Source: Botryllus schlosseri (Eukaryota). From it: a stretch of 60,000 bases of DNA. Position numbers and translations under genes: made by a program. This document shows, piece by piece, positions 19,422 to 57,000 of this stretch (position 1 is the first letter of the stretch; every line of letters begins with the position of its first letter). The DNA lies in NCBI GenBank assembly GCA_051294905.1, contig CM119373.1, forward strand, positions 4,776,001-4,836,000, read 5' to 3'. The notes under the pieces were generated by a model. It was not told the origin of the DNA, searched no databases, and saw only the letters and a program-made list of their open reading frames with translations.

Positions 19422-21190
19422 TGTAGCGGCTCTACAAGGCGCGGTGGTCGATCTTGTTGATTATTTGATTAGCAATTTGTGAATACTTCCGCGTCCCTTT
19501 CCAATGCATGCATGTTGATGCGTTTACGGCCAGTTACTCTTTTCGCTCGCAATAAACGCAGCTCTCGCTTTATTGGTGACCCCGACGCACAGGAACGTAT
19601 TCCTGTACTACGAGCATGGATCAGCAAGCAGGCAATCAGAATGCGGTAGCTGTTAACCTCCCTACCTTTTGGGCAGAGGAACCACGAGTTTGGTTTCGAC
19701 TGGCGAAAGCACAGTTCGCCTTGAAAGGAGTTACTGCCGATGAAACCAAATTCCATTACGTAGTTTCAGCTTTAGATCAGGCCACGGCAAAACGGCTGAT
19801 AGAACTATAGGACAATCCTCCACAGGCAGAGAAGTACAACGCAAACAAAAGCAGGTCATTACAGTCATTTGATTTGTCTCCACCAGAGCGAGCTGCACGT
19901 CTGTTGAAATTGTCACCTCTCAACGACAGAAAACCGACAGATGATGGACGAAATGCTTGCGCTGCTAGGAGATCATCACCCATGCTTCCTTTTCAAATAC
20001 TTATTCTTGCAGCAAATACAGGAAAACATACGGATAGTGCTGGCAAAAGAGGATATAGATAACCCCCGAGATTTGGCTCGGCGGGCAGATCAAATGTGGC
20101 AATCGAGAACCGACAATTACTGTATAAGTAAGTTGACTAAGACAAAACTGGCCATCCCTTATACTATTGAGCCGGATTCAAACTTCTGCTTCTACCATCG
20201 ACGATTTGGTAAGAAAGCACGACAATGCTGCCCTCCCCGTGCTTGGCAACAGGAAAACGACAAAGCCGGTTGTCCGCAGTAAACGGGCAACCGGCAAAAA
20301 ATTATTTTACCCGCAAGACCTGAGTTCTAACTTCTAACTTCCTTTTTCTTGTCGACACCGGGGCGGAAGTGAGCGTATTCCCACCCACCAGGCTTGAACG
20401 GAGACACAAAACCTCTGGTCCGCTGCTCACGGCCGCGAACGGAAGCATCATACGTACGTACGGGACCAAGCGTCTTTCTTCGGTTTTTCCGTCAGTCAAA
20501 TATGGTTGGGAATTCACTTTGGCTGACGTGTCCCAGCCCTTGCTCGGAGCAGATTTTCTTCGAGCGCAAGATTTGCTGGTTGATGTCAAACACCGTCGCC
20601 TGATTCATTTGCATTCCCTGACCAGCGTTCCTCTTCGTATTAGTGAACACGTTTCGCTTGGTCTTAATTATGTCAGTACGGGCCGGTCTTGCTACGCGCA
20701 AATCTTAGCTGAATTTCCCAAGATTACTATCCCGCATTTTACACATGTACAACCCAAGCACAACGTGGAGCATCTTATCTCAACAATAGGACAGCCGATT
20801 CATTCACGTGCAAGGCAATTGGCCCCTGACAAGCTCGCCATCGCACAAACTGAGTTTAATACGATGTTGGAGCTGGGAATCATCCGTCGTTCTTCAAGCC
20901 AATGGTCCTCCCCTTTGCACATGGTGCCCAAGGATTCCGGAGGCTGGCGGCCTTGTGGAGATTACAGGCGTCCGCAACCAGACCGTTATCCCATCCCACA
21001 TCTTCAAGACTTCACCGTGCGCCTCGTGGGATCAAATGTATTTTCTAAAATCGATTTGGTGCGGGGCTACCATCAGGTTCCCGTAGCACCTGATGACATT
21101 CCGAAAACAGCCATCACCACACCATTCGGATTGTTCGAATTCCTACGCATGTCATTCGGGCTTAAAAGCGCAGCGCAGACATTTCAGCGA
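19422..21190 (+). mobile_element. Gypsy LTR retrotransposon 5' half (LTR, PBS, gag, protease, partial RT)
   Basis: LTR-like start TGTAGCGG; gag LPTFW...WF...AQF with a CFYH..FG..A..C zinc knuckle; [10 protein letters not shown] protease; RT motifs [30 protein letters not shown] and [12 protein letters not shown]. Stops, frameshifts and truncation before YxDD. Confidence 0.93.
19574..19587 (+). promoter_or_regulatory. Primer-binding site complementary to the tRNA-Trp 3' end
   Basis: TGGTGACCCCGACG matches the complement of animal tRNA-Trp ...CGTCGGGGTCACCA. Confidence 0.85.
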
Positions 21191-22650
21191 AATATTAGTC
21201 CTTCGCTTTCTTCGCGGGTCGTACCCGCCGCATAAGCTTGATGCGAAATCCCGTTGAGCTTTCCGTGGGGCTTCTGTGCCAGTCTTTCAGGCACTTCATC
21301 GTGTCCGTGTTCGCGTCCTGAACGTAGATTTATTCCATTCCGTCCAGATATGAAAGCCCCCCTCGCACACAATGGCGGAGAGGGCTCTCAAACCATGGAC
21401 TCCCGCGTCCTTGCATCTAAGCAGGTTCTCGGCGCTTTCGACGCACCATCCGCCGCGCCAATTTAAAACAATGGTGCCGTGGACCACTCGGTCCACTTTA
21501 GCACGGGACGTAATCCATGCCTTTATTTCTTCCGTCCGATATTTGTCGCTTTTCTTGCGGAACTCTGCCGCCAGGGTGGAATTATCCGTGACGATTGTAA
21601 TGTCAACCACCCTGGCAACCTTCTCGCTCTTATTGATGAGAACGAGGTCGGGTTTACGGAGTCCACTCTTCGTTCTTTTATGTGGCTCCCACCAAGCTTC
21701 GTCGCCATGCTGTTCAGCTTTACGCAAGACAGTCATGCTGTTCAGCTTTACGCAAGACAAAGCGAGCGACGCGATTGTGGCGTCTGATACGCGCGGCATG
21801 CGTCCTGGGGCACACTTGAAGGATATGCCCCAGCGACGCGATTCTTCCACAGCACTCGCAATGCTTATCGGATTCGAGACGTGCCCGTACTTTTCGGGCC
21901 GGCTTGGGCATGAGATTTCCACGTATTTTAACGGCTCCGATATAATTTCGCCCAGTTAGGGTGGTTGCTGTTTGTATCCCCTCCTGAGCTTTCGGAAGTT
22001 CATTGGCGGCTCTCTGAGGCCGCTACCATCCACTGAGGCCATCAGACGCTCTCGCATCCGGGCCGCCAGTGTCTCGTTGGAGTCCGTGGCAGAACACAAC
22101 GGTTTCCGTGCGCTGCGATAGGCGAAAGCGGCTTTCACCGCTTCGTCCTCTACGCCTTAGAGGCGCACCAATCTCCGGGCTATAAGCACCGGCGTTGGCA
22201 TGAGATTTCCACGTATTTTAACGGCTCCGATATAATTTCGCCCAGTTAGGAGGGGATAGCGCTCTTTCTATCCCCTCCTGCGCTTTCGGAAGTTCATTGG
22301 CGGCTGTCTGAGGCCGCTACCATCCACTGAGGCCATCAGACGCTCTCGCATCCGGGCCGCCAGTGTCTCGTTGGTGTCCGTGGCAGAACACAACGGTTTC
22401 CATGCGCTGCGATTGGCGAAAGCGGCTTTCACCGCTTCGTCCTCTACGCCTTAGAGGCGCACCAATCTCCGGGCTTTAAGCACCGGAATTCGTTGACTGA
22501 GTGACATCACACCCAGCCCGCCGTCGCCCTGATTTGAATGGACAAACGCGATCGGTGTATCCTTCGGCAGCCTAAGCCACCTCCGGACCACCTCCCTCAC
22601 CAGACGTTCCATGCGACTCAGATATTCTTTGGTCGCATTCGCGGCTCTCG
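21191..22650 (-). mobile_element. 5'-truncated R2-like (RLE-clade) non-LTR retrotransposon fragment
   Basis: VRRWLRLPKD...HS..GDGGLG (post-RT thumb), CECCG...LGHILQVCPRTHAARIRRHNRV (CCHC), KPDLV...VVDITIV...K..KY (restriction-like endonuclease), then about 100 bp of 3' UTR. Internal 290-bp tandem duplication (21907/22197). Confidence 0.88.
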
Positions 22651-29889: not shown

Positions 29890-32184
29890 TAGATGATTTG
29901 GTAGTAGGACATATCCGTAATGAGTATTCAGAGCGAATTAACGTAAATTCACATTCGGTACTGAAGTCAAATCTATACGCAAACAAGTAAGATGTAAACG
30001 AGAAGCTAAGGAGGCTGAAACAAGGCAGCGTAAAAGATCACGTGATGACATGCTGGAGGCATCTACGTGGATATCACCGGACTCCATTCTCACTAGCACT
30101 AGTAGTGACACAGGCTCTTCTGCCTCTGTATTAACAACTGACGATGATATGCCAGGTTCCAGTAGATCAAATCGATCTGATTTCGTGTTGTTGAAAGTCC
30201 CACGAAGAATATCATCTCTGCCTTCAGTAATTGCTGCTGCTGATAGACATAAACTTTCAAATCACGGATTAAATGATATTTTGGCATCCGTTATCAGAGC
30301 ATCTGGCGGTGATGTCAATGACTTCATTTTAAGTGAGTCAACAACTTCACGGTGGCATCAGGCTGTTCGGAGTAACTATTGTTGGGAAATCAACGAACAA
30401 TTGAAATTAGCATCAAAAGGGAAACTATTTTACAATTCACTGGGACGAGAAACTTCTGAAGCAGGGTACTGATATGTTTCCCAAACAGCACATCGCCATA
30501 TTGGCAAGTGCTGGAGGGGAATCAAAGCTTCTTGTGACTACAGATTTACAATCCGGGACTGGGTTTAATCAATCTTCAGCTATCCTAATTGCTGCTGCTG
30601 ATAGACATAAACTTACAAATCACGGATTAAATGATATTTTGGCATCCGTTATCAGAGCATCTGGCGGTGATGTCAATGACTTCATTTTAAGTGAGTCAAC
30701 AACTTCACGGTGGCGTCAGGCTGTTCGGAGAAACTATTGTTGGAAAATCAAGGAACAATTAAAATTAGCATCAAAAGGGAAAATATTTTACAGTTCACTG
30801 GGACGAGAAACTTCTGAAGCAGGGTACTGATATGTTTCCCAAACAGCACATCGCCATATTGGCAAGTGCTGGAGGAAAATCAAAGCTTCCTGGGACTACA
30901 GATCTACAATCCGGGACTGGATTTAATTAATCTTCAGCTATCGAAGAAATACTAAACGAATGGCAAATTCGGGATAATTGCTTAGCCATGTGTTTTGACA
31001 CGACGTCCTCAAACACTGGCAAATTTAGTGGTGCATGCATTTTGCTGGAAGCTTTGCTAGGACATCCACTACTTTTCGCCGCATGCCGTCATCATATTTT
31101 TGAAATCATTTTATCAAATGTGCTCCAGAGTGTTTTCGGTGCATCAACTGGCCCAAAACTTGATATTTTTGATTATTTGAAAAAAACGTGGGATATTTTG
31201 AATCATGAAAATGAAACGAATCATCTGGTAATTGGAGAAAATGTTGAAAAGGGTGATGTATTACAGGCAAAATCCACTTTAGACAAGCTACGTTCCAACA
31301 GTAACTACACCCCACGAGATGACTACAAGGAGTTGCTTACTCTTTCTATATTTTACATTGATAAGGCAGCATTTCCTAATTTCACATTTCGCAGGCCAGG
31401 ACCTCATCATAGAGCGCGGTGGATGTCATCTGCAATTTACACGTTAAAGATGCTTCTTCTACAAGACCAAATTGATCTTGACGAGTCCACTCTCATGAAG
31501 ATGAAGCGTTTTGGTGACTTCATTGCATGTTTTTATACCTGTTATTGGCTTCAAGCTCTCCTCCCCTCCCCTCGGAGGCTGCAGTCTATGATTTGCAATT
31601 TTACCGAAAAATGCTGGAAGTTTCCGTTAGCAATGGCCCAATGAGGGAAATTGCAACAACTGTAATTTCCTCATTCAAGGGCCATCTCTGGTATTTGTCA
31701 AAATAGCTTATTCCCTTTGCTTTATCCTCAGAATCTTTATCCCCTGACGAAAAAGAATCACTTGCTTTGAAAATTTATGAATCCTTTGAAAGATGTGCGG
31801 ATTCCTCTATGACACCGCAGAAACCTGTTTTTCCGACGGTTTCTGAAGAAACGAGACTTCATCATCTGGTCGGTGACAGATCAACCACTGGTCGGTGACA
31901 GATCAACCATACTTCTTAAACGAATGAAATTCAGTTTAGATGCCATGGAATTTCTTGAGCATCCATCGACAACGTGGCTTCAATTTTCCAAGTATAGGTA
32001 CCTTGAAAATGTAGTGAGATCTTTGAAAGTTGTGAATGATCCTGCAGAAAGGGGAATTCGTCTCCTTGAGGAGTACAAAGACATCCTCACGCATGACTCA
32101 TATGAAAGGAATGTAATAATGCAGTGCGTTGAAAACAGCCGCAAGCTTCGCTCAGATTTCAAAAAATCCTCATTGGCACATAAA
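29890..32184 (+). pseudogene. hAT-superfamily (hATm-like) transposase pseudogene, 5'-truncated
   Basis: IHWDEKLL (D1), CFDTTSSNTG (D2), ACRHH (CxxH), HRARWM and VNDPAERG (E). Contains a 358-bp internal tandem duplication, frameshifts and stops. Confidence 0.88.
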
Positions 32185-32394
32185 TAATTTGAAATTGGTG
32201 AATATGATGTAAATGTGCTAAATAAATTCTACTTTTACGCTTTTCAATATTGTATCTGGTCGTTTTTGTATTATTGTTTCTTTGGTGAAAATACATTTCG
32301 GTCTTTGGTGAAAATACATTGCGGTAACTTTTTCGTTTGATAAAATACACTTCATTCAATGGAAATGGTGTCATTTGAAATAAATAACCATCCA

Positions 32395-36743: not shown

Positions 36744-37340
36744 CAGGGTTGTAACCAAGTCACAAGGCACCGAGTCACAAGTCAATCTCAGTTTTATAGT
36801 TTTGACTCGAGTCAAGTCGAGTCATTTTCAATTCACCACCGAGTCAAGTCCGAGTCCAAGTCATCGAAAATAGAGTCGAGTCCGAGTCACGGTATTATGA
36901 CTCGAGTCGAGTCCAAGTCATTGTGTTGACTGCTCAGATTCCTGTTAATGTCTTGGTAAACCCACCATTTATAACTCTGTTTGGTGATGTCGACTGGTTC
37001 GCATTTCTAATATACTAATTTTCCTCACTTTTAGCAGTTTTTGGTCGCATTTTCAAGTACCAGTACCCATAGACGAAATCCCAATAGCGTGGTTACTTTA
37101 CTATTCTTCGAAAATACAATGAAATGTCGGTCTTGGCGGTCTGCGTATCGAGTCATATGACTTGGCTCGAGTCATGCACAATGACTCGAGTCTAAGTCGA
37201 GTCAATACAGAAATTGACTCGAGTCGAGTCGAGTCATTTTAGTATTTTGAGAAAATGACTCGAGTCAAGTCGAGTCATCAAAAAATGGTGACTCGAGTCC
37301 GACTCGAGTCGAGTCATGACTCGAGTCATTACAACCCCTG
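36744..37340. mobile_element. hAT-type MITE with GAGTC/GACTC repeats
   Basis: cagggttgtaa...ttacaacccctg; perfect TSD gtcctgtc. Confidence 0.92.
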
Positions 37341-38859
37341 GTCCTGTCCTTCCAATCTGAGCCCACAATCAAATGCCACCCGGCGCATCCACATAGGAAT
37401 AAAGCCATGACAATTTGCGTGTGCGTCTCACGAAAGATATTCTTTTAGTCTGCTATGTTTGGGCGAGTACAATATCTGTTGATTAATCAACAGACTGGAG
37501 GTCACGAATTAACAACATACAATAAAGTAATTATAACAACATACCAGATGCTATAATTATGAACTACGTGCCCCAGCTCTACAGGTAAATCTGACACTCG
37601 GGGCTGAGAGAGGTTAAAAATGAATAGTAATTAAATTCAATGACCAATATTATTGACGAAATTCAGTTTTGAAAATTGACCAACGGTTGGACTGGGGGAC
37701 GAATTGCTGTTGGTTCTGACTCTAGCTACAACCCAAGCTAACATGTCAGGCTATATAAGCGGATGGTTATGGCGGCAGGTCAAAATGCTGAGTAACGAAC
37801 TGTGAAATAACGATTGACGCCCGTTTCAAGTCGTTATATGAGAATAAGATATAGTGAACAATAAAATTCTGCCTTCAACTTAATACAGATACTGCGAGCT
37901 GCTGTTACGAGAAACGGCTAAGCACGGCTCGGTTATGATATATATCAGCACTAGCAGCTGTTTATTTGTAATGCTTCGTTGTGGAAACTGCAATGTTTTA
38001 TTCGACGAGTACAAAACTCCGAATTTTTGTCAGGTGTACGTTGTACGTGCGTACGTAGGCCTACTGCTCGCCAAGCCAAGCCAAACGTTGAAACTGCGTT
38101 TAACTGGGCACAACCAAACATCAATACATAAACCAATGATGATGAAGTTACTATTTGAAACTATAGGCAGAGTGGTGATCAATATCCTGCTGCGAGGTAG
38201 GGGCTTCTGTAGTGTATTGATAACCTGATATACACCACGGGGGTGTTCTTACAATCACACTACAATGTCCACCGCATGTCTGTTTACAATGTGTGGATAC
38301 TTCTTACGCAATGACGAGCGGAGCTAATACTTTGAAGTGGCGTTTGAAAATAAGACGTTTGTGCTATCGCTAACGTGGTATATTATCTCATTCTTGTTCA
38401 CGAATATTCAGTTTATGTCATAGTCCTTGTACAAACAAAAAGTAATCGTTCTTTCACAAAGAAATCGATTAGATATGGGAAGTAGTCAATTACGATTACG
38501 ATTACTTCGGATTTTTTTCGAATGTAATCGATTGCGATTACGATTACTTCAAAATGCTGTAATCGTCGTAATCGATTACGATTACTAATCGCGATTACCC
38601 CATGTCTGGGTTGAGGCACTTGAATGGAAGAGGCTATGTAGTGCCGCTATGTATCAATATGGTATCGCGGCGAAATTCCGCATGAATGCACGGCGACCTT
38701 GGTATGTCGCCTAATTGTGACTGCGACGTGCGACGTAATCAACAACGGCGGGAAATGGTAGGTAATTGAGCGCGGGGTTGATATGGATATCACATAGGTG
38801 AGTGGAAGTCGGACTGACGGTTAGTTATGATTCCTCTCGAACGCTGTAGAACGTTGTAA

Positions 38860-40951
38860 TAACACAGTCAACGTGTATCATTTTGCGTGTTATTTAGAGC
38901 GGTGCGCGTGTAGTTTGAGAAGGTTGGTTCGCATATCAGCAGTATCGCCAGTCGAAAGCAGCGTGAAACCATCGTGAGGCGTAAATTTGAAGTTCGTCGC
39001 GCAAGGCTCGCGTAACCATTGGAAAACGCGTCTGGCCATGAGAATACTGCTGTCACATGTCGTTTGGTAACGGGGGAGTCGCGTATGCGTTACAGACGAT
39101 AACCACATAGACATAGACTCAAATGACGTCTGAAAAATGTACGGCATCAACGCTAGCCATCCTAACGAAAATGACGTCGATGGACCACGGCCGAGTTCGG
39201 AGTAATCACGACACGAATCTCGCCGGAATGATTGCGTATGACTACACGTTCTTTTTTTGGTTACAGTGAAGCCGGTGGACGGCACGAGGAACCTGCCCGC
39301 ACCTCGCTTGCCGACGACCTGCAAAGGTGTGTTGACGAGTTTGAAACGTTGCGTTTTAATTATAAATTGTGAAATCCTTGCAGTGATAACAATTGCTCGT
39401 CCACTTCGAGCGGGAGCTCAGCTGAGTGCCCCGTTCACCCCCCAAGAGACAACAGGTATATTTCTAAGGCTCGGTGTCGTGCCCGAAGCAATCGCCATAG
39501 TCGTTGAATTGCACCTTCTTTACAGCTGCGATGAAAACGACGCGCAGATGGCCTCAAAATCGGTCGACAAGCAAGCACGGTTAGTCACACAGAATGTAAC
39601 ATCGCCGATAAAGCTGACATCTAAATTTTTTCAAGGAGTTCCGACGACGAGACGGACTCGACTGCGGCGAAATCCGCAGATGGAAAGGTCTTTTCTACGA
39701 CCCGTGAACGCACTGACACTTGCCCTATTTGTGGCATTCTTACACGAGGTCATCGGGCACGCCACATGAGGAGCGTTCACAACGAATCTCCACCAAAGAC
39801 CCGTTGGTAGGTGTTGCTGCTTGATCGTATTTTGTCTGACAATTTTAGATGACCGTGTGGATTTCTCAGGAAACCGGGTGCTTCGGCTGAACGAGCGAAC
39901 GCTAAAATTGCGCCTAGATCTCTCTGTGCGTTGTGCAAAGACAGCGTCACGACGTCATACGTGTCGTCCCACTGGCGCCGTGTTCATCAAGATCGAGTGG
40001 CAGCAGGTTCCGGTGTCGGCAGTGATGAATACAAAAGTAATTTTTCAAAGATCACTTTTGAGAGCGACATGGAAACGGTAACTTGCTCGTCGTCGTGTGT
40101 AAATGTGCACCGGGTAAATTATATTTTAACCTTACCAAGATGCTGAAAAAGTACGCTAAATTCCGGGCTGCCCGGCAGCTCGACTATCACAATACAAACA
40201 TGGTGCTCTCACGGATAAGGTCTATGTTCGGTGACTATCTTCGTACAGACGCAGAGCGCCTCATAGATTACGTTGCTGAGGGAGGGCGTGCAATATCGGC
40301 GAGCACCGTCTTCAACACCCTTAACGCCATAAAGGGTTTCATAGAGTTCGGTCAGGGTCACGACAGGCCTCTCTTGGACGCCATCGTATCGCCGGATAGT
40401 CAAGCTAGGTTGCTCCAGATCGTCGCGGGAACGTACCGATCCACCAACCTGCAGCGTAAAAAAGCCAACGCACGAAACCTCACGAGCGATATGCGAACCA
40501 TCAATGAAAACTGGTCACTATTAAAAACGTGTGTGTGATTGAGTGTCAATGGCTAAAGGTAACCTTGTTGAACATAACATCCTGTGATATTGCAGTATGC
40601 TCTCGTCGACAGACTACAAGGCAGATCTCGACAGACCGCTGACGAACGAAAACTTTCGCTTTTGCCTCGCCGCATGCATTATCGACATTTGATTGTGCAC
40701 CGGAACAAGACTTTCGTACTTCTGCCGGGTAACCGCCGACGAGCTTCTGGAACATATGACGTCGCTGACCGACGACTCCAGACTTGTGATACAGAGTGAA
40801 TTTAACACAAATTTCTATCACACAAATCGAAGGGCACATACTAAGTCTGACATGTGACAACATGAACGCTGGTATCATCACAATGATGTAACAATGGCGT
40901 ATCCGGATTTTGACACTTGACATATGATGGAGCGTAGATAACTCTGTCCAT
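38860..40951 (-). pseudogene. Multi-exon gene encoding two C2H2-like zinc fingers plus a tyrosine-recombinase-like domain, disrupted by an internal inversion (39139-40719 now reads on +)
   Basis: Eight frame-preserving GT-AG introns: 40841-40783 (-), 39202-39266, 39327-39383, 39456-39525, 39580-39635, 39807-39869, 40078-40139 and 40529-40595. Zinc fingers CPICG...RHMRSVH and CALCKD...SHWRRVH. YR-like segments SASTVFNTLNAIKGFIEF, ENFRFCLAACIID, HRNKT, KFTPHD and NLLKLHAHRS. Confidence 0.72.
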
Positions 40952-41048
40952 ACCAAATTTTATGTAGATCCGTCGCCAAAAACGTGTCCAAAATAGATAA
41001 CTATGAATTATAGCGCTTGTAATTTCAACCAAATACGCGAGAAGCTTA

Positions 41049-41380
41049 TCGTGTTTCGATGAGCGCAGTTCCGGAAACCAACATTTGTAGTAAATGTCGA
41101 CGATATCCCTAGACGAAGCTTGTATAGTACCTTAATCGTGCCAAATATTAAAGGTATACCATATGTCTTTCAGCTCAAACAACGCCGACTTCTGGAAGAA
41201 GGTACCACATTTTAGCGAATCGCGTATGAATCGCGTTTACGAGAATTGCAACGAAATCGCGAAAAACTCGTGTTTCGATGAGCGCAGACCCGGAAAAGAA
41301 CATTTGTAGTAGGTCAACGATATTCCTAGACGTAGCACTTACATGTGCCAAATAAGCTATAGCAAATGTCTTTCAGCTCC
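41049..41380. repeat. Diverged tandem duplication, period about 220 bp
   Basis: tcgtgtttcgatgagcgcag...acatttgtagta...atgtctttcagctc occurs twice (about 41049 and 41268). Confidence 0.7.
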
Positions 41381-42229
41381 AAAACAACGACCGCGAACTC
41401 TCACATCGAGAGTTCAGGTTGAAATTATACAGCTGTAGTCCTACCGAAGAGCCGTTAAAAGTGAAAGGAAGGGATGCGTTTTCGCGCGAAGGAGTCACGC
41501 GAAGGAGTGTCAGACTGCATGGCAAAGAAATACTGCCAGGAATCCTATCTCCAGACCCACCAAATGTAAACATGATCTTTCGCTATCCTAGATCCTGGAT
41601 ATGACATTGCAGTGCAATAATAAATCTCACAAGGCATATAAGGAAGACACAGACGTTTATTGCTTTCTCAGACATGAAATGTTACAGGAATTGACGATAT
41701 AACCCGTAAGGGTCTTGTTACTCATCATCTCCATTACTGTGAAGTAACTCCATTACTGTGAAGTAACACATATCATATCAGTGAATATAAACAGGACAGT
41801 CTGCCTTTGCAGGAAGCAGAAGCACACATATAAATTACTTAAAACACCGGTCAGTTATGGCAACATGCTCGTATTAGCAGCATATGGAATCGATAAACAC
41901 TAAACAGTGGCATAATATATCAATGCACTATTCCAACTGTACACATATATATGTACTGTACGCACAAGGCTGTGTATGTTTGTATCAAGCATCATAAACA
42001 GCGGGGCATAGAATGGTTGAAAGCTAAGCCGCAATATATTTTAAGGAGCGGAAACATGTGAACTCGGCAACAATGACTGAATTACTAAAATTCATTTAGT
42101 GGACACATATACTCTTTCACAGAAGAGAGCTAACAAAGGACATATGTTAGCATGCAACTCAATATACACACGATTCAAGTTCAGCACAACAATACATACG
42201 ATTCACCGTCAGCACATAGTCTCAACAGG

Positions 42230-54063: not shown

Positions 54064-57000
54064 TTACAGGCTTTTGATTAGAGTTGACTTCCTGCTGTCT
54101 CCAACTGTCTTCCTATACTGTTCCACAGCTTGAAGCAGACTGTCTCTTTGTTGTTCATTGTCAGTCAAGATTGCAGCATAGTCTGTGCTTAGCTTTACAT
54201 CTCGTTCTGCGGCATCATTAACGACTGTGACAGAACTGATGTAGGAGCTCATTCTGGTGTAGGAGCTCATTCTGGTGTAGGAATCTGATAAGTGCCAAAC
54301 ATCAACCGGTTGAGCTAGCCACGCCCCAGAGCATTCAAAAACATCAAATATGTACCACGACTGTGGCCCAATAAAATCAGACAAAGTAGTGTCCTTGTTG
54401 ATGTGTACAACAGTTGCATTCAACGAGCTCGGGCCTCTCCTGAAACTTGAAGTTCGCTACATCTCGTTCTGCGGCATCATTAACGACTTTGACAGAACTG
54501 ACGTAGGAGCTCATTCTGGTGTAGGAATCTGATAAATGCCAAACATAAACCGGTTGAGCTAGCCACGCCCCAGAGCATTCAAAAACATCAAATATGTACC
54601 ACGACTGTGGCCCAATAAAATCAGACAAAGTAGTGTCCTTGTTGATGTGTACAGTTGCATTCAACGAGCGCTGGCCTCTCCTGAAACTTGAAGTTCGCTC
54701 TACCTGCAGGAGCGTCTTTGCCATATTTTCTCGGGTTTCATTGCTTTCACTCGGCGAAAACAAGGCATATACAGCGGTTTCATCCACGATATACCAGTCA
54801 TGCTTCAAAAGCTTTTGTGAAGCAGCTTTGGAAACTTGTTCATCATGTTCCTTGTAACTCAACATGTCCTGGATGAATCTCAAGTCATTACCGGCTGCAT
54901 CACGACCGATGCTGGAAGCAACCCAGGCAGGGATGTAAAAGAGAACTAAAAATAAATTGAAGCGATGCAGCAGTTCCACTTCTTCAGATTTGTAATGTAA
55001 CTGATCAGCCCACATGAACATCTTCTGAGCATACAGAATTGTGCCCATCTACATTGTATGGTGTTTTGCACCAGGTTTGTGATGATGTATCTCCATCTGC
55101 ACCGGGAAGAGCAAGAGCATTAGTCACACATTGTTTGTAGTCATCCCGTGTGAAGAAATCTTTTCTGGCGAGTAGTAGCTTGAAGTTCTCAACTTTCATT
55201 GCTGCTCGTTCTTTGAAGCATATAGGAATAGTCAGAGTCTTGAATTGCTGTTTTCTGTCAAGACTGCTCCAGCTCTTCTTAAGTTGGGCAAACTTGGACA
55301 AAGCTTCATATCGATTTCCTAATCTATCCTCTGTGAGCTTTCCATCACAATGAATGGCAACATGCTGTGATTTTCGGCAGATTTTTCCAAAATGTCCCGA
55401 GATATTTCCAGGCGATTTGTTTCCCTGGCTCTCTTCGTTGAAGATATTGACAGGGTGAACATGGCGATATCTCCTCCACAAGCTTTAATAAATGCTCCCA
55501 TCAGCATCGTTGCATCCTTGTCAGTTAGTTGCAATCGATCCAGAGCTTGGGACACATGCGTATTTTTCATAATATTTTTAGGTGCCATCAGTTTAATGGA
55601 TTGGGTCGAGGTTCCAAGTCCAACATCAGCATCATAGTCAGAACTTGAACTCAAACTGTCACACTCTTTTGAAGATGACGATGATTTGATCTGCAATGGC
55701 TGCTGTTTTTTTTTGAGGTCTTTAGCCAGAATTTTGTCTCTTCCCAACATTATTGACTGGCGAGATTGCCGTTGATCTTCATAAAATGCAATGTCTTCAA
55801 GCTTTCTTTCATGTGATAGATAAATGTCATTTTCTATTGTTGTTATGGCATCTCTACTTCCAATATCCCACAGCTTGTCCAAATTATCAGTGAATTTTCT
55901 CCTCTTACCCTTGGGATCACTTTCCTGTTTCGGATTCTTCTTCAGGTCACGCCATCTTTCGTGCAGGTTTTGAAGTGATCGCACCACATGTGATTTCTGC
56001 ATTGTCGCAATTCTCGCCATTTTCCACACTGTCATATTACATCATCCACCACCACAGTACATAGTTCATGAGCAATGTTCCCTCTAAGCTGCGCACGTGC
56101 GCAAATGCGCAGTGCTGAAGCGGTCTCTGCGCACAGAAAATCTAAGTTGCGCACAAAAAATCCGAAGTGATGTTTTTTTTTAAAGTCGTTGCGCACTGTT
56201 GTCCAAGGGACCACGCAGGCGCGCAAACTCGTGAAAAATTAGGGGGAACATTGCCAGGGGCAATTAGTGTTATCGCTGAAGTATTACACCGAGGTACAAG
56301 TGCGGCCCGCAAAGGTAAATATTGCGCTCCGTGACGAAATGAGACTTTGCAATCACGAGCGCCTAACGAAAAATCTTTTCTTTTAGTATGGCCTCGTACG
56401 CGTGAGCGATACTGATATCATTTCAATAGCGCATTATTTTCTGGGAATGGCGAAATAACATGGTTTAACAAAGTTATAAATAACAATGGGCTAGCTCAAA
56501 GTTAATCCGCGAGAAACTAGCGCATAGTCTTCTCCGCGTGTCATGAACATTGCGTAAGATTTCCTCAGGACCGTAACTGCTGCACCCCAAACCCTCAATT
56601 AGGGGACCGAGATCGAAGGGAGCCCAAAATTATTTCGTGAATTAACATAAATCATGGTGTATCTTTTGGGAATTTTTCAAAATTTTTTTTCAAATTTCTT
56701 GATTATTGAGTACCCTTCCCACAACAAAAGATACGCTTGATTAAGAGAAATGGGCACTTGGTCGTTGGCCATTACCTTGCCACGACGCACCAAGACATAT
56801 GAAGTTATAGGCTATGTGACATGCGACTCCAAGAAGTGCGCCAAAACGATCAGCAGCGAGAAAACCTTAGCCGAAAAGGACTGCCCTATATATGCTGACC
56901 GAAAACTTCGAATCATACATATAAGTTTAATTGTCCATAGGCGCGTAAATGGCTGGCGCTGAATGTTCATGTGCTGGCGATCCGAGTCCCACAACAAGAC

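Follow-up and report, generated by a model that had tools for sequence, protein, structure and literature searches.

Does a 60,000-nucleotide stretch of Botryllus schlosseri DNA (the window) hold, split among short exons, a gene for a zinc-finger tyrosine recombinase (YR), and could such a copy still act? An earlier note, made from the letters alone, had proposed an intron-rich YR integrase that was already dead. We find a spliced gene at 39137-40795, predicted to comprise 8 exons and 7 introns; it reads on the + strand as given, and the reverse-complementing called for in that note is not needed. The introns are short and of GT-AG type (56-70 bp), as had been said, although they number seven rather than eight, six being of phase 2 (instead of seven) and one of phase 0. 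With seven introns the description of the gene as unusually intron-rich still applies. The spliced frame runs through 371 open codons, and its first in-frame stop is the TGA at 40690, about where the open frame had been thought to end. The features are listed below.

38727-39136, + strand: upstream region, non-coding; 62 % identical to its homologue at the paralog, with 44 gap columns
39137-39201, + strand: exon 1; ATG at 39137, ATG and GT donor kept in paralog L021, 65-nt alignment without gaps
39202-39266, + strand: intron 1; 65 bp, GT-AG, phase 2
39267-39326, + strand: exon 2, acidic Ser-rich N-terminal region; weakly constrained
39327-39383, + strand: intron 2; 57 bp, GT-AG, phase 2
39384-39455, + strand: exon 3; from splice model and paralog alignment
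39456-39525, + strand: intron 3; 70 bp, GT-AG, phase 2
39526-39579, + strand: exon 4; from splice model and paralog alignment
39580-39635, + strand: intron 4; 56 bp, GT-AG, phase 2
39636-39806, + strand: exon 5, zinc-finger-like motif 1; C-x2-C-x10-H-x4-H at 39721-39780
39807-39869, + strand: intron 5; 63 bp, GT-AG, phase 2
39870-40077, + strand: exon 6, zinc-finger-like motif 2; C-x2-C-x11-H-x4-H at 39925-39987
40078-40139, + strand: intron 6; 62 bp, GT-AG, phase 0
40140-40528, + strand: exon 7, SAM-like core-binding domain (MLKKYAKF...NWSLLK); from predicted-structure matches
40529-40595, + strand: intron 7; 67 bp, GT-AG, phase 2
40596-40795, + strand: exon 8 remnant, start of the catalytic domain; carries catalytic Arg I (GTR, Arg codon 40708-40710)
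40690-40692, + strand: in-frame TGA; a Gly codon in the closest paralog
40796-41500, no strand assigned: unrelated dispersed repeat in place of the gene's remainder; 115 matches in the own genome

The upstream region is possibly a promoter or 5' UTR. Four sequencing runs compared with the locus showed no splice joint. Contigs of two of them, which are only guessed to be RNA, cross introns 1-2 and 5 unspliced, so these two sets behave like DNA; one further read set gave 4 reads at the locus, all on the repeat from 41049 onwards. A minus-strand ORF of 175 aa at 38890-39417 had no Pfam match, and we treat it as spurious antisense.

The gene can be followed through its paralogs. In the own genome, exon 7 has at least 44 matches and exon 9, the catalytic exon, at least 56. 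Intact paralogs include one at C16:22,383,600-22,388,300 and a unit on C30. All eight window exons align gap-free to L021, a paralog on another chromosome (169 of 200 bases are identical in the exon 8 remnant), and four of the seven introns carry indels. Between the window copy and its closest paralog, omega is 0.032 in exon 7 and 0.046 in exon 8, at a dS of 0.9-1.0; the values are 0.135 for exons 5-6 and 0.74 for exons 1-4. Judged from the sequence by its gap-free exon alignment, its intron indels and the low dN/dS of exons 7 and 8, the gene is real, far beyond chance. Paralogs lacking the predicted introns were what the earlier note had named as counting against it; instead, intron positions and phases are common to distant paralogs, down to ~35-41 % amino acid identity. 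At the intron 5 junction, the fitting listed candidate in L021, L003 and L006 is 60 bp long and of phase 2. The intron 6 junction is occupied in L003 and L006 by a 63-bp intron of phase 0, and in L012 an AG acceptor stands immediately 5' of the matching codon; a phase-2 GT-AG candidate for intron 7 falls at the same codon in 7 of the 8 sequences examined. Beyond the window copy's seven, intact paralogs have at least an eighth intron.

Many family copies carry stops. Copies on chromosomes C1 (13.17 Mb) and C5 (20.76 Mb) are 99.5 % identical, with identity extending beyond the 7-8 kb compared, and a copy at 8.88 Mb of C3 is near-identical as well; a segmental duplication could account for the more than 7 kb that the C1 and C5 copies share. 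Some paralogs are located within an rDNA-like tandem array, in the spacer rather than in 28S, or close to a telomere-like run that marks a chromosome end. The window copy itself sits in ordinary repeat-rich DNA, not in telomere or rDNA.

Intact family members begin with an acidic N-terminus, continue through two C2H2-like fingers, a SAM-like domain and a YR-like catalytic domain, and end in a small helical domain. The spliced window product bears out the earlier reading of its first part: the Ser/Asp-rich N-terminus, two C-x2-C-x10/11-H-x4-H fingers and the peptides MLKKYAKF..., SASTVFNTLNAIKGFIEF and LTNENFRFCLAACIID are all in it. The classical C2H2 spacer is 12 residues, and those of the window fingers are shorter (10 and 11). 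The finger ligands are kept in paralogs of 41 % identity, and the fingers match only zf-H2C2_2 in Pfam (E=0.6).

For exon 7, the evidence comes from its predicted structure. The AF2 model of the window's own exon has a pLDDT of 69.7, and in VIA-align named integrases or recombinases take 10 of its 14 top rows (Z 9.2-6.9; in these rows 79-89 residues are aligned at an rmsd of 2.5-3.1, over model residues 1-100). The best rows are YR core-binding domains at Z 9.2-7.5; for helical domains, a Z of 7-9 counts as modest. The top four Foldseek matches are Brujita Int, an archaeal Xer, Cre and XerA, at E >= 0.09, and in paralog L012 the Pfam domain Phage_int_SAM_1 reaches E=0.017, below the cut-off. 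Ndc10/Cbf2 is a Crypton-derived kinetochore protein, and its DNA-binding domain is also among the structural matches of exon 7 (Z 7.0 and 5.7; PDB 3sqi and 6p7w). By its modelled fold, exon 7 is backed as a recombinase-type core-binding domain, and the earlier assignment of the S.ST..N.L...F..F motif to core-binding helices agrees with this fold match.

Is the family that lies behind this copy a tyrosine recombinase? Intact paralogs with an R-K-HxxR-H-Y set, which were to be sought in the genome, are present there. Six of the seven with a complete domain have the spacing R-33-K-68-HxxR-23-H-9-Y, and the seventh, L032, deviates only from K to H (56). In L025 the pattern for the third His caught an earlier SSHS, and the aligned SSHS is in the same column. 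Lambda Int, Cre, XerD and XerC have spacings of 23-28, 68-88, 3, 22-23 and 9. The R, K, HxxR, H and Y columns are kept among paralogs that are ~38-64 % identical to L006 in the catalytic domain. With hhalign, the family scores 23.4 against six reference YRs (P 0.02, 2.4 %), a score reached by 1 of 100 column shuffles, and box I and the Lys fall in register with the references; the C-terminal half alone scores at chance level (27 of 100 shuffles reach the score). In a protein language-model atlas all named neighbours are PF00589, the best at 0.93.

Sequence profiles gave no such signal. The 281-aa uninterrupted catalytic ORF of L006 (L006:663-1505) matched nothing in Pfam or NCBIfam at E up to 10, DUF3504 included. 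A PF00589 search of the whole own genome returned 0 candidates, a result for which its first-look filter may account. PDB searches with phmmer, and with hmmsearch using the family profile, found no recombinase, and tblastn against phages gave five chance matches (E >= 1), none of them in an integrase. The AF2 model of the 238-aa catalytic domain has a mean pLDDT of 40, and its structure search was uninformative, with unrelated helical proteins only (best Z 5.8). Because no YR sequence profile (PF00589, NCBIfam, PDB HMM) matches, the assignment depends on how the catalytic residues are spaced and on the core-binding fold, together with weak signals from profile comparison and the language model. 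Most likely, the family encodes a zinc-finger tyrosine recombinase of mobile-element type.

What remains in the window copy is the pair of fingers, the core-binding domain and 66 codons from the start of the catalytic domain, with Arg I among them; it has no Lys, HxxR, His or Tyr. Paralog homology stops at 40795, and the dispersed repeat starts exactly there. Many of the repeat's 115 genomic matches begin at query base 1, and some are inverted pairs 4-9 kb apart. The window contains no inverted mate of the repeat end at 40796; within 19 kb there is therefore no sign of a simple insertion that would have left the 3' part of the gene beyond the repeat. Exon 9 sequence is absent from the window, which covers 4.78-4.84 Mb of C3, and among the exon 9 matches listed for C3 there is none in the interval from 1.62 to 6.65 Mb. 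The loss of Lys, HxxR, His and Tyr is thus due to truncation, not to small deletions.

The copy is dead, as the earlier note had it, because of the in-frame TGA at 40690 and the loss of all sequence after 40795; the small deletions it had invoked for both catalytic arginines do not account for this, Arg I being present. Of the three segments that it had read as catalytic boxes, two also fall away. HRNKT is in the wrong frame (ORF 40578-40799), the paralog-homologous frame passing the TGA as LCTGTRLSYF..., and KFTPHD...NLLKLHAHRS is encoded at 38890-39000 on the minus strand, ahead of the gene's start, with no match to the paralogs' catalytic exon. Over the 34 codons 3' of the TGA, 15 nucleotides but no amino acid separate the window copy from its closest paralog, which suggests that the TGA is young and that selection acted on the full-length protein. 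By this measure, the copy died recently compared with the time since it split from that paralog.

As to the kind of element, the earlier note had seen no linked reverse transcriptase (RT), and this holds: the paralog loci L021, L025, L035 and L027 together have 29 ORFs of 110 aa or more, none of which matched RT or RNase H, and the sole match was a sub-threshold DUF4371 fragment. We found no element ends, target sites or empty sites. The family most likely belongs to the RT-less, Crypton-like YR DNA elements. Crypton DNA transposons were reportedly described by Goodwin and colleagues in 2003. In the available text of Kojima and Jurka (2011, PMC3212892), animal Cryptons (CryptonA, CryptonI) are YR-only and lack RT as well as terminal inverted or long terminal repeats; they occur in chordates including tunicates, may carry introns and have repeatedly been domesticated. 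The window family is likewise YR-only without RT, bears introns and lives in a tunicate. It differs from what that text describes in three respects: CryptonA YRs match DUF3504 strongly (E at most 8e-12), whereas the window family has no DUF3504 or PF00589 match; animal Cryptons are described without a C-terminal domain, and the window family has one; and its zinc fingers have no counterpart in the Crypton descriptions given there.

A second comparison is with the YRs of endogenous nimaviruses and decapod genomes, associated with telomere repeats and 28S rDNA (Kawato et al. 2023, PMC10871703). The available text of that paper describes proteins in which a C2H2 zinc-binding domain is combined with a SAM-like domain at the N-terminal side and a YR domain, with some genes multi-exon, and reports them as distinct from DIRS, Enterprise and Cryptons. 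Compared by these descriptions only, the window family resembles them in its motif pattern and fold (finger, SAM-like domain and YR) and in being multi-exon, and some Botryllus paralogs also occupy tandem-repeat niches (the rDNA-like spacer and the telomere-like run). Unlike them, the copies examined have no nimavirus genes around them, and the host is not a crustacean. XerC/D, lambda Int, Cre and Brujita Int are alike in core-binding fold (Z 9.2-8.0) and in residue order and spacing. However, the family has no significant sequence similarity to prokaryotic or phage YRs, its R-to-K distance is longer (33 vs 23-28), and it carries zinc fingers and an acidic N-terminus in addition, as well as spliceosomal introns.

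Several other readings deserve to be weighed against that of a dead element copy. The window copy and a paralog on C16 could descend by duplication from a domesticated gene of the host, in which a YR had become a factor for DNA binding or recombination and of which the window copy is the dead duplicate. Such a history would suit the strong, long-lasting purifying selection (omega 0.03-0.05 at dS ~0.9), the 95 % clade with only two members among the matches listed, and the likeness of the two copies, whose eight exons align gap-free and whose introns 1-7 are alike in length (56-70 vs 57-71 bp); Crypton YRs have been domesticated repeatedly, tunicate candidates included, in the available account of Kojima and Jurka (PMC3212892). 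But purifying selection acts on active elements too, the wider family is multi-copy with many stop-bearing members, and near-identical copies sit on two chromosomes and others inside repeat arrays. Intact paralogs also retain the full catalytic set, most of which domesticated DUF3504 proteins have lost according to the same account. We therefore consider domestication unlikely. That the protein is no recombinase at all, but a zinc-finger and SAM-like DNA-binding protein whose C-terminal half mimics the YR pattern by chance, would explain why every YR sequence-profile test failed, why the catalytic-domain model is unusable and why its C-terminal half scores at chance, and helical core-binding-like bundles fairly often reach Z 7-9. 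Yet the R, K, HxxR, H and Y set is complete, with its last spacings of 3 and 9 equal to those of all four references and 23 against their 22-23; its residues are conserved across the ~38-64 % paralogs, it lies directly 3' of a domain that best matches YR core-binding structures, and both the hhalign register of box I and Lys and the PF00589 neighbours in the atlas speak for a recombinase. Chance mimicry seems quite unlikely to us.

The window copy might instead be alive as a truncated protein of 371 residues, in which fingers and core-binding domain serve to regulate by binding DNA or to inhibit the full-length enzymes. Its frame is open from ATG to TGA over seven introns with intact GT-AG sites, and what it retains is the DNA-binding part. 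The unchanged amino acids past the TGA, however, indicate a young stop and selection for full length, and of the amino acid changes in exon 7 that could be polarised, most occurred on the branch of the window copy (4 vs 1, small numbers), which makes a living truncated protein very unlikely. An RT-like ORF in the window at 20324-21235 raises the thought of a fragment of a DIRS- or Ngaro-type YR retrotransposon, but that ORF is 18 kb off with unrelated sequence between, and the four paralog loci are free of RT and RNase H. Retrotransposed copies would lose introns, and the window copy has seven conserved spliceosomal introns and intact paralogs at least eight; such an origin is scarcely credible.

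Our preferred reading, which we hold to be probable, is that 39137-40795 is a pseudogene, a nonsense-bearing, 3'-truncated copy from a family of RT-less, Crypton-like YR elements. In an intact member, the fingers and the core-binding domain would recognise DNA, R-K-HxxR-H would activate the Tyr nucleophile, and the element would move by site-specific excision and integration. The window copy would have lost its 3' part where the repeat begins and gained a TGA, leaving it unable to recombine DNA.

Our searches brought up few public relatives. A word-index search with window exon 7 found no public homologue, and exhaustive HMMER with the same exon over 1.84 billion representatives gave one 123-aa ORF (P0001, 42 %) and a spurious WD40 protein. 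A word-index search with the 267-aa ORF of L012 found no public homologue, and one with the family alignment found a single 148-aa ORF (P0003). Literature searches on Cryptons and YRs with introns, at telomeres or rDNA, or in tunicates and ascidians turned up no account of the family. It is tempting to speculate, as a possibility that we hold tentatively, that it represents an undescribed intron-rich lineage of eukaryotic YRs (C2H2, SAM-like, YR and HTH-like domains), kin to the nimavirus-associated telomere and 28S recombinases rather than to Cryptons. Its sub-lineages may be specialised on chromosome ends, the rDNA-like array and dispersed sites, with the clade of the window and C16 copies a dispersed lineage still active or a fresh domestication.

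For the locus, this means that its 'zinc-finger' ORFs belong to a pseudogene and not to a host transcription factor. Though a dead fragment, the window copy is a clean marker of a gene family missed by standard annotation, which it escapes because it has no Pfam match, only two exon-sized public ORFs were found, and it is divided by seven or more tiny introns. The main interest lies with the intact relatives elsewhere in the genome. Eukaryotic YR DNA elements are rare and poorly understood, and a family with intact catalytic residues, shared introns and copies in rDNA-like and chromosome-end repeats offers a system for studying how such elements choose repeat niches and for asking about kinship with the integrases of large endogenous viruses.

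The gene that the earlier note proposed as a zinc-finger/tyrosine-recombinase (YR) gene is real, and the observation was largely right. Of the eight short introns it listed, seven are confirmed and the eighth is not. These seven GT-AG introns, of 65, 57, 70, 56, 63, 62 and 67 bp and in phases 2, 2, 2, 2, 2, 0 and 2, join eight exons of the window copy:

39137-39201, plus strand: exon 1, starting with the ATG at 39137
39267-39326, plus strand: exon 2
39384-39455, plus strand: exon 3
39526-39579, plus strand: exon 4
39636-39806, plus strand: exon 5
39870-40077, plus strand: exon 6
40140-40528, plus strand: exon 7
40596 onward, plus strand: exon 8

As had been claimed, the spliced frame stays open to about 40690: starting at the ATG, it spans 371 codons until a TGA (40690-40692) closes it. 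Among the quoted peptides, the zinc-finger, MLKKYAKF, SASTVFNTLNAIKGFIEF and LTNENFRFCLAACIID ones are plus-strand ORF fragments between 39625 and 40692. The other quoted peptides are not part of the same protein. KFTPHD...NLLKLHAHRS, read as containing a catalytic box, comes from the minus strand, as the end of an ORF (38890-39417) that lies upstream of the plus-strand pieces; it does not resemble the catalytic exon of the paralogs. HRNKT, taken for another box, belongs to a different frame (ORF 40578-40799). The minus-strand ORF is 175 aa long and runs antisense to exons 1-3 and to the 5' region of the gene; a Pfam search with it gave no match.

We searched the animal's own genome (495.5 Mb, 219 contigs; the window is C3:4,776,001-4,836,000) and obtained at least 44 matches with exon 7, which encodes the core-binding (SAM-like) domain, and at least 56 with exon 9 of a paralog, the exon in which HxxR, His and Tyr lie. 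The closest relative, locus L021 on contig C16, shows 73.5 % DNA identity to window 38727-40795. All eight exons align with it gap-free, and indels fall in four of the seven introns and in the upstream region. By the Nei-Gojobori method, exon 7 has a dN of 0.032 and a dS of 0.99, and omega rises from 0.046 in exon 8 to 0.135 in the exons with the fingers and 0.74 in those of the acidic N-terminus. The intron positions, whose absence from paralogs would by the earlier note have refuted its reading, are found in paralogs of about 35-41 % amino acid identity. For intron 7, seven of eight sequences examined have a GT-AG candidate in phase 2 at the same codon; intron 6 is in phase 0 in L003 and L006, and in L012 its acceptor directly precedes the matching codon; for intron 5, phase-2 candidates of 60-63 bp occur in the window, L021, L003 and L006. 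L012, L003, L006 and L025 also have an intron 8, in phase 0. Because such distant paralogs have the same intron positions, the introns are most probably old and real.

The window copy is dead, as the earlier note held, though not by small deletions removing both catalytic arginines. Its causes are the in-frame TGA and the loss of sequence past 40795. The exon-8 frame supported by the paralogs reads AACIIDI-TGA-LCTGTRLSYFCRVTADELLEHMTSLTDDSRLVIQ, with the TGA standing where L021 has a Gly codon, and catalytic Arg I (GTR) is kept at codon 40708-40710. The stop is probably young relative to the duplication, because the 34 codons past it differ from the paralog by 15 nucleotides and by no amino acid. 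Homology to L021 stops at 40795. Exon 9 of the paralogs has no match anywhere in the window, and its matches listed for C3, the window's chromosome, include none between 1.62 and 6.65 Mb, an interval that contains the window (4.78-4.84 Mb). From 40796 onward lies a dispersed repeat, for which the genome search gave 115 matches, many beginning at query base 1; its end coincides with the gene's truncation point. Inside this repeat (40796-41500, extending beyond) are tandem units of about 200-220 bp, assigned to repeat families D2 and D8. Elsewhere, some copies form inverted pairs 4-9 kb apart, which suggests that it forms the end of a DNA transposon, as its terminal inverted repeat; no inverted mate lies within the window. 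The feature is an ordinary pseudogene of an unusual family.

The window holds other features. At 20324-21235 and 19908-20282 (both plus strand), a 303-aa ORF has motifs that resemble the protease and reverse transcriptase (RT) of an LTR retrotransposon; it is unrelated to the gene. Long ORFs form two groups, at 29942-32187 (plus) and 54064-56041 (minus), in which some segments are partly duplicated, AADRHKL(S/T)NHGLNDILASVIRASGGDVNDFILSESTTSRW for example occurring twice; they have the look of genes derived from transposases and interrupted by introns or frameshifts. A patch of short direct and inverted repeats with GACTCGAGTC-like units lies at 36797-37327.

What the family encodes is best seen in its intact members, which continue with QV-x3-K, YQHLRK, S-x-HS and HYDG. 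The spacing R-33-K-68-H-x-x-R-23-H-9-Y occurs in six of seven paralogs with a complete domain, the exception being L032 with 56 residues from K to H and otherwise the same spacing. (In L025 the third-His pattern matched an earlier SSHS; the aligned SSHS is in the same column as in the other paralogs.) Our references were lambda Int, Cre, XerC, XerD, FimB and FimE; the first four, on which catalytic positions were verified, have spacings of 23-28, 68-88, 3, 22-23 and 9, and the family's last three fall inside their range. Folded with 12 relatives, the window's exon 7 gave a model of pLDDT 69.7. In a Foldseek-independent structure search of 48,161 PDB representatives, named integrases or recombinases occupied 10 of the top 14 rows (79-89 residues aligned, rmsd 2.5-3.1), with Z values of 9.2 for Brujita Int, 8.1 for XerD, 8.0 for lambda Int and 7.0 for the Crypton-derived Ndc10; the best 50 rows held 20 named integrases or recombinases and two Ndc10. 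These Z values are modest for a helical domain, and the weight lies in the consistency of the matches. Foldseek's first four matches were also recombinases, but at E of at least 0.09.

No sequence profile picked out a recombinase. An uninterrupted 281-aa ORF spanning the whole catalytic domain, with intron 8 retained in frame (L006:663-1505), matched nothing in Pfam or NCBIfam at E up to 10. PF00589 searched over the genome yielded no candidates, PDB phmmer and a family-profile hmmsearch found no recombinase, and phage tblastn returned chance matches only. The AF2 model of the catalytic domain reached pLDDT 40, and a structure search with so poor a model is meaningless. Local hhalign against the six references aligned box I and the Lys in register (score 23.4, P 0.02, probability 2.4 %, both profiles being very thin); column shuffles reached its score in 1 of 100 cases for the whole, 5 of 100 for the N-half alone and 27 of 100 for the C-half. 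In a language-model atlas the domain's nearest neighbours were unnamed eukaryotic clusters (0.96-0.97), and every named neighbour was PF00589, the best at 0.93 and with few shared features, a lead only. The earlier reading was right in kind, a tyrosine-recombinase-type, RT-less, intron-rich, dead gene, and wrong in several particulars.

A DIRS-type retroelement is excluded, because four paralog loci, with 29 ORFs of 110 aa or more, gave no match to RT, to RNase H or to any other enzyme family and because the introns are conserved. Cryptons differ in two respects: according to Kojima and Jurka (PMC3212892), DUF3504 is strongly matched by CryptonA recombinases and animal Cryptons have no C-terminal domain, whereas our family lacks a DUF3504 match and its intact members end in a conserved domain of about 85 aa (L006:236-496, minus; L021:8402-9298, plus; L012:2704-3330, plus). 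This C-terminal domain has no Pfam match; its language-model neighbours are transposase HTH families (0.83-0.86), again a lead only. In L012 and L007 it is preceded by a tandem peptide repeat that is rich in proline and threonine and varies in copy number. The closest published architecture is that of recombinases from endogenous nimaviruses and decapod genomes, which combine C2H2, SAM-like and YR domains, are in some cases multi-exon and are tied to telomere repeats or 28S rDNA, according to Kawato et al. 2023 (PMC10871703).

Contig C30 (212.5 kb) is filled by a tandem array of about 17.7-kb units (loci L022, L023 and L024), with 12 family copies among the matches listed, spaced 16.7-18.9 kb apart. 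Each unit examined also has 18S, 5.8S and a 28S that is shortened internally to 1,699 nt; in an examined unit the recombinase gene looks intact and lies some 4 kb past the 3' end of the 28S, to which it is convergent. In the canonical rDNA, on C28, the 28S measures 3,726 nt and no family match was obtained; the C30 unit and C28 share 28S-3' and spacer segments of 82-93 % identity. Family matches at the start of C3 (16.6-26.2 kb) have no rRNA genes and lie by a telomere-like run at C3:18817-18876. Further along C3, more than 15 family matches cluster at about 6.65-9.08 Mb, and in-frame stops interrupt many of them.

The family is multi-copy, with stops in many copies. Between L025 (C1:13.17 Mb) and L026 (C5:20.76 Mb), an identity of 99.5 % extends for more than 7 kb, past the ends of the segments compared, which reflects either recent transposition of a large element or segmental duplication. 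As no element ends were found, mobility is something we infer for the family. We rate it among the RT-less eukaryotic YR elements, a known kind, and it is the intact relatives, rather than the window copy, that merit follow-up.
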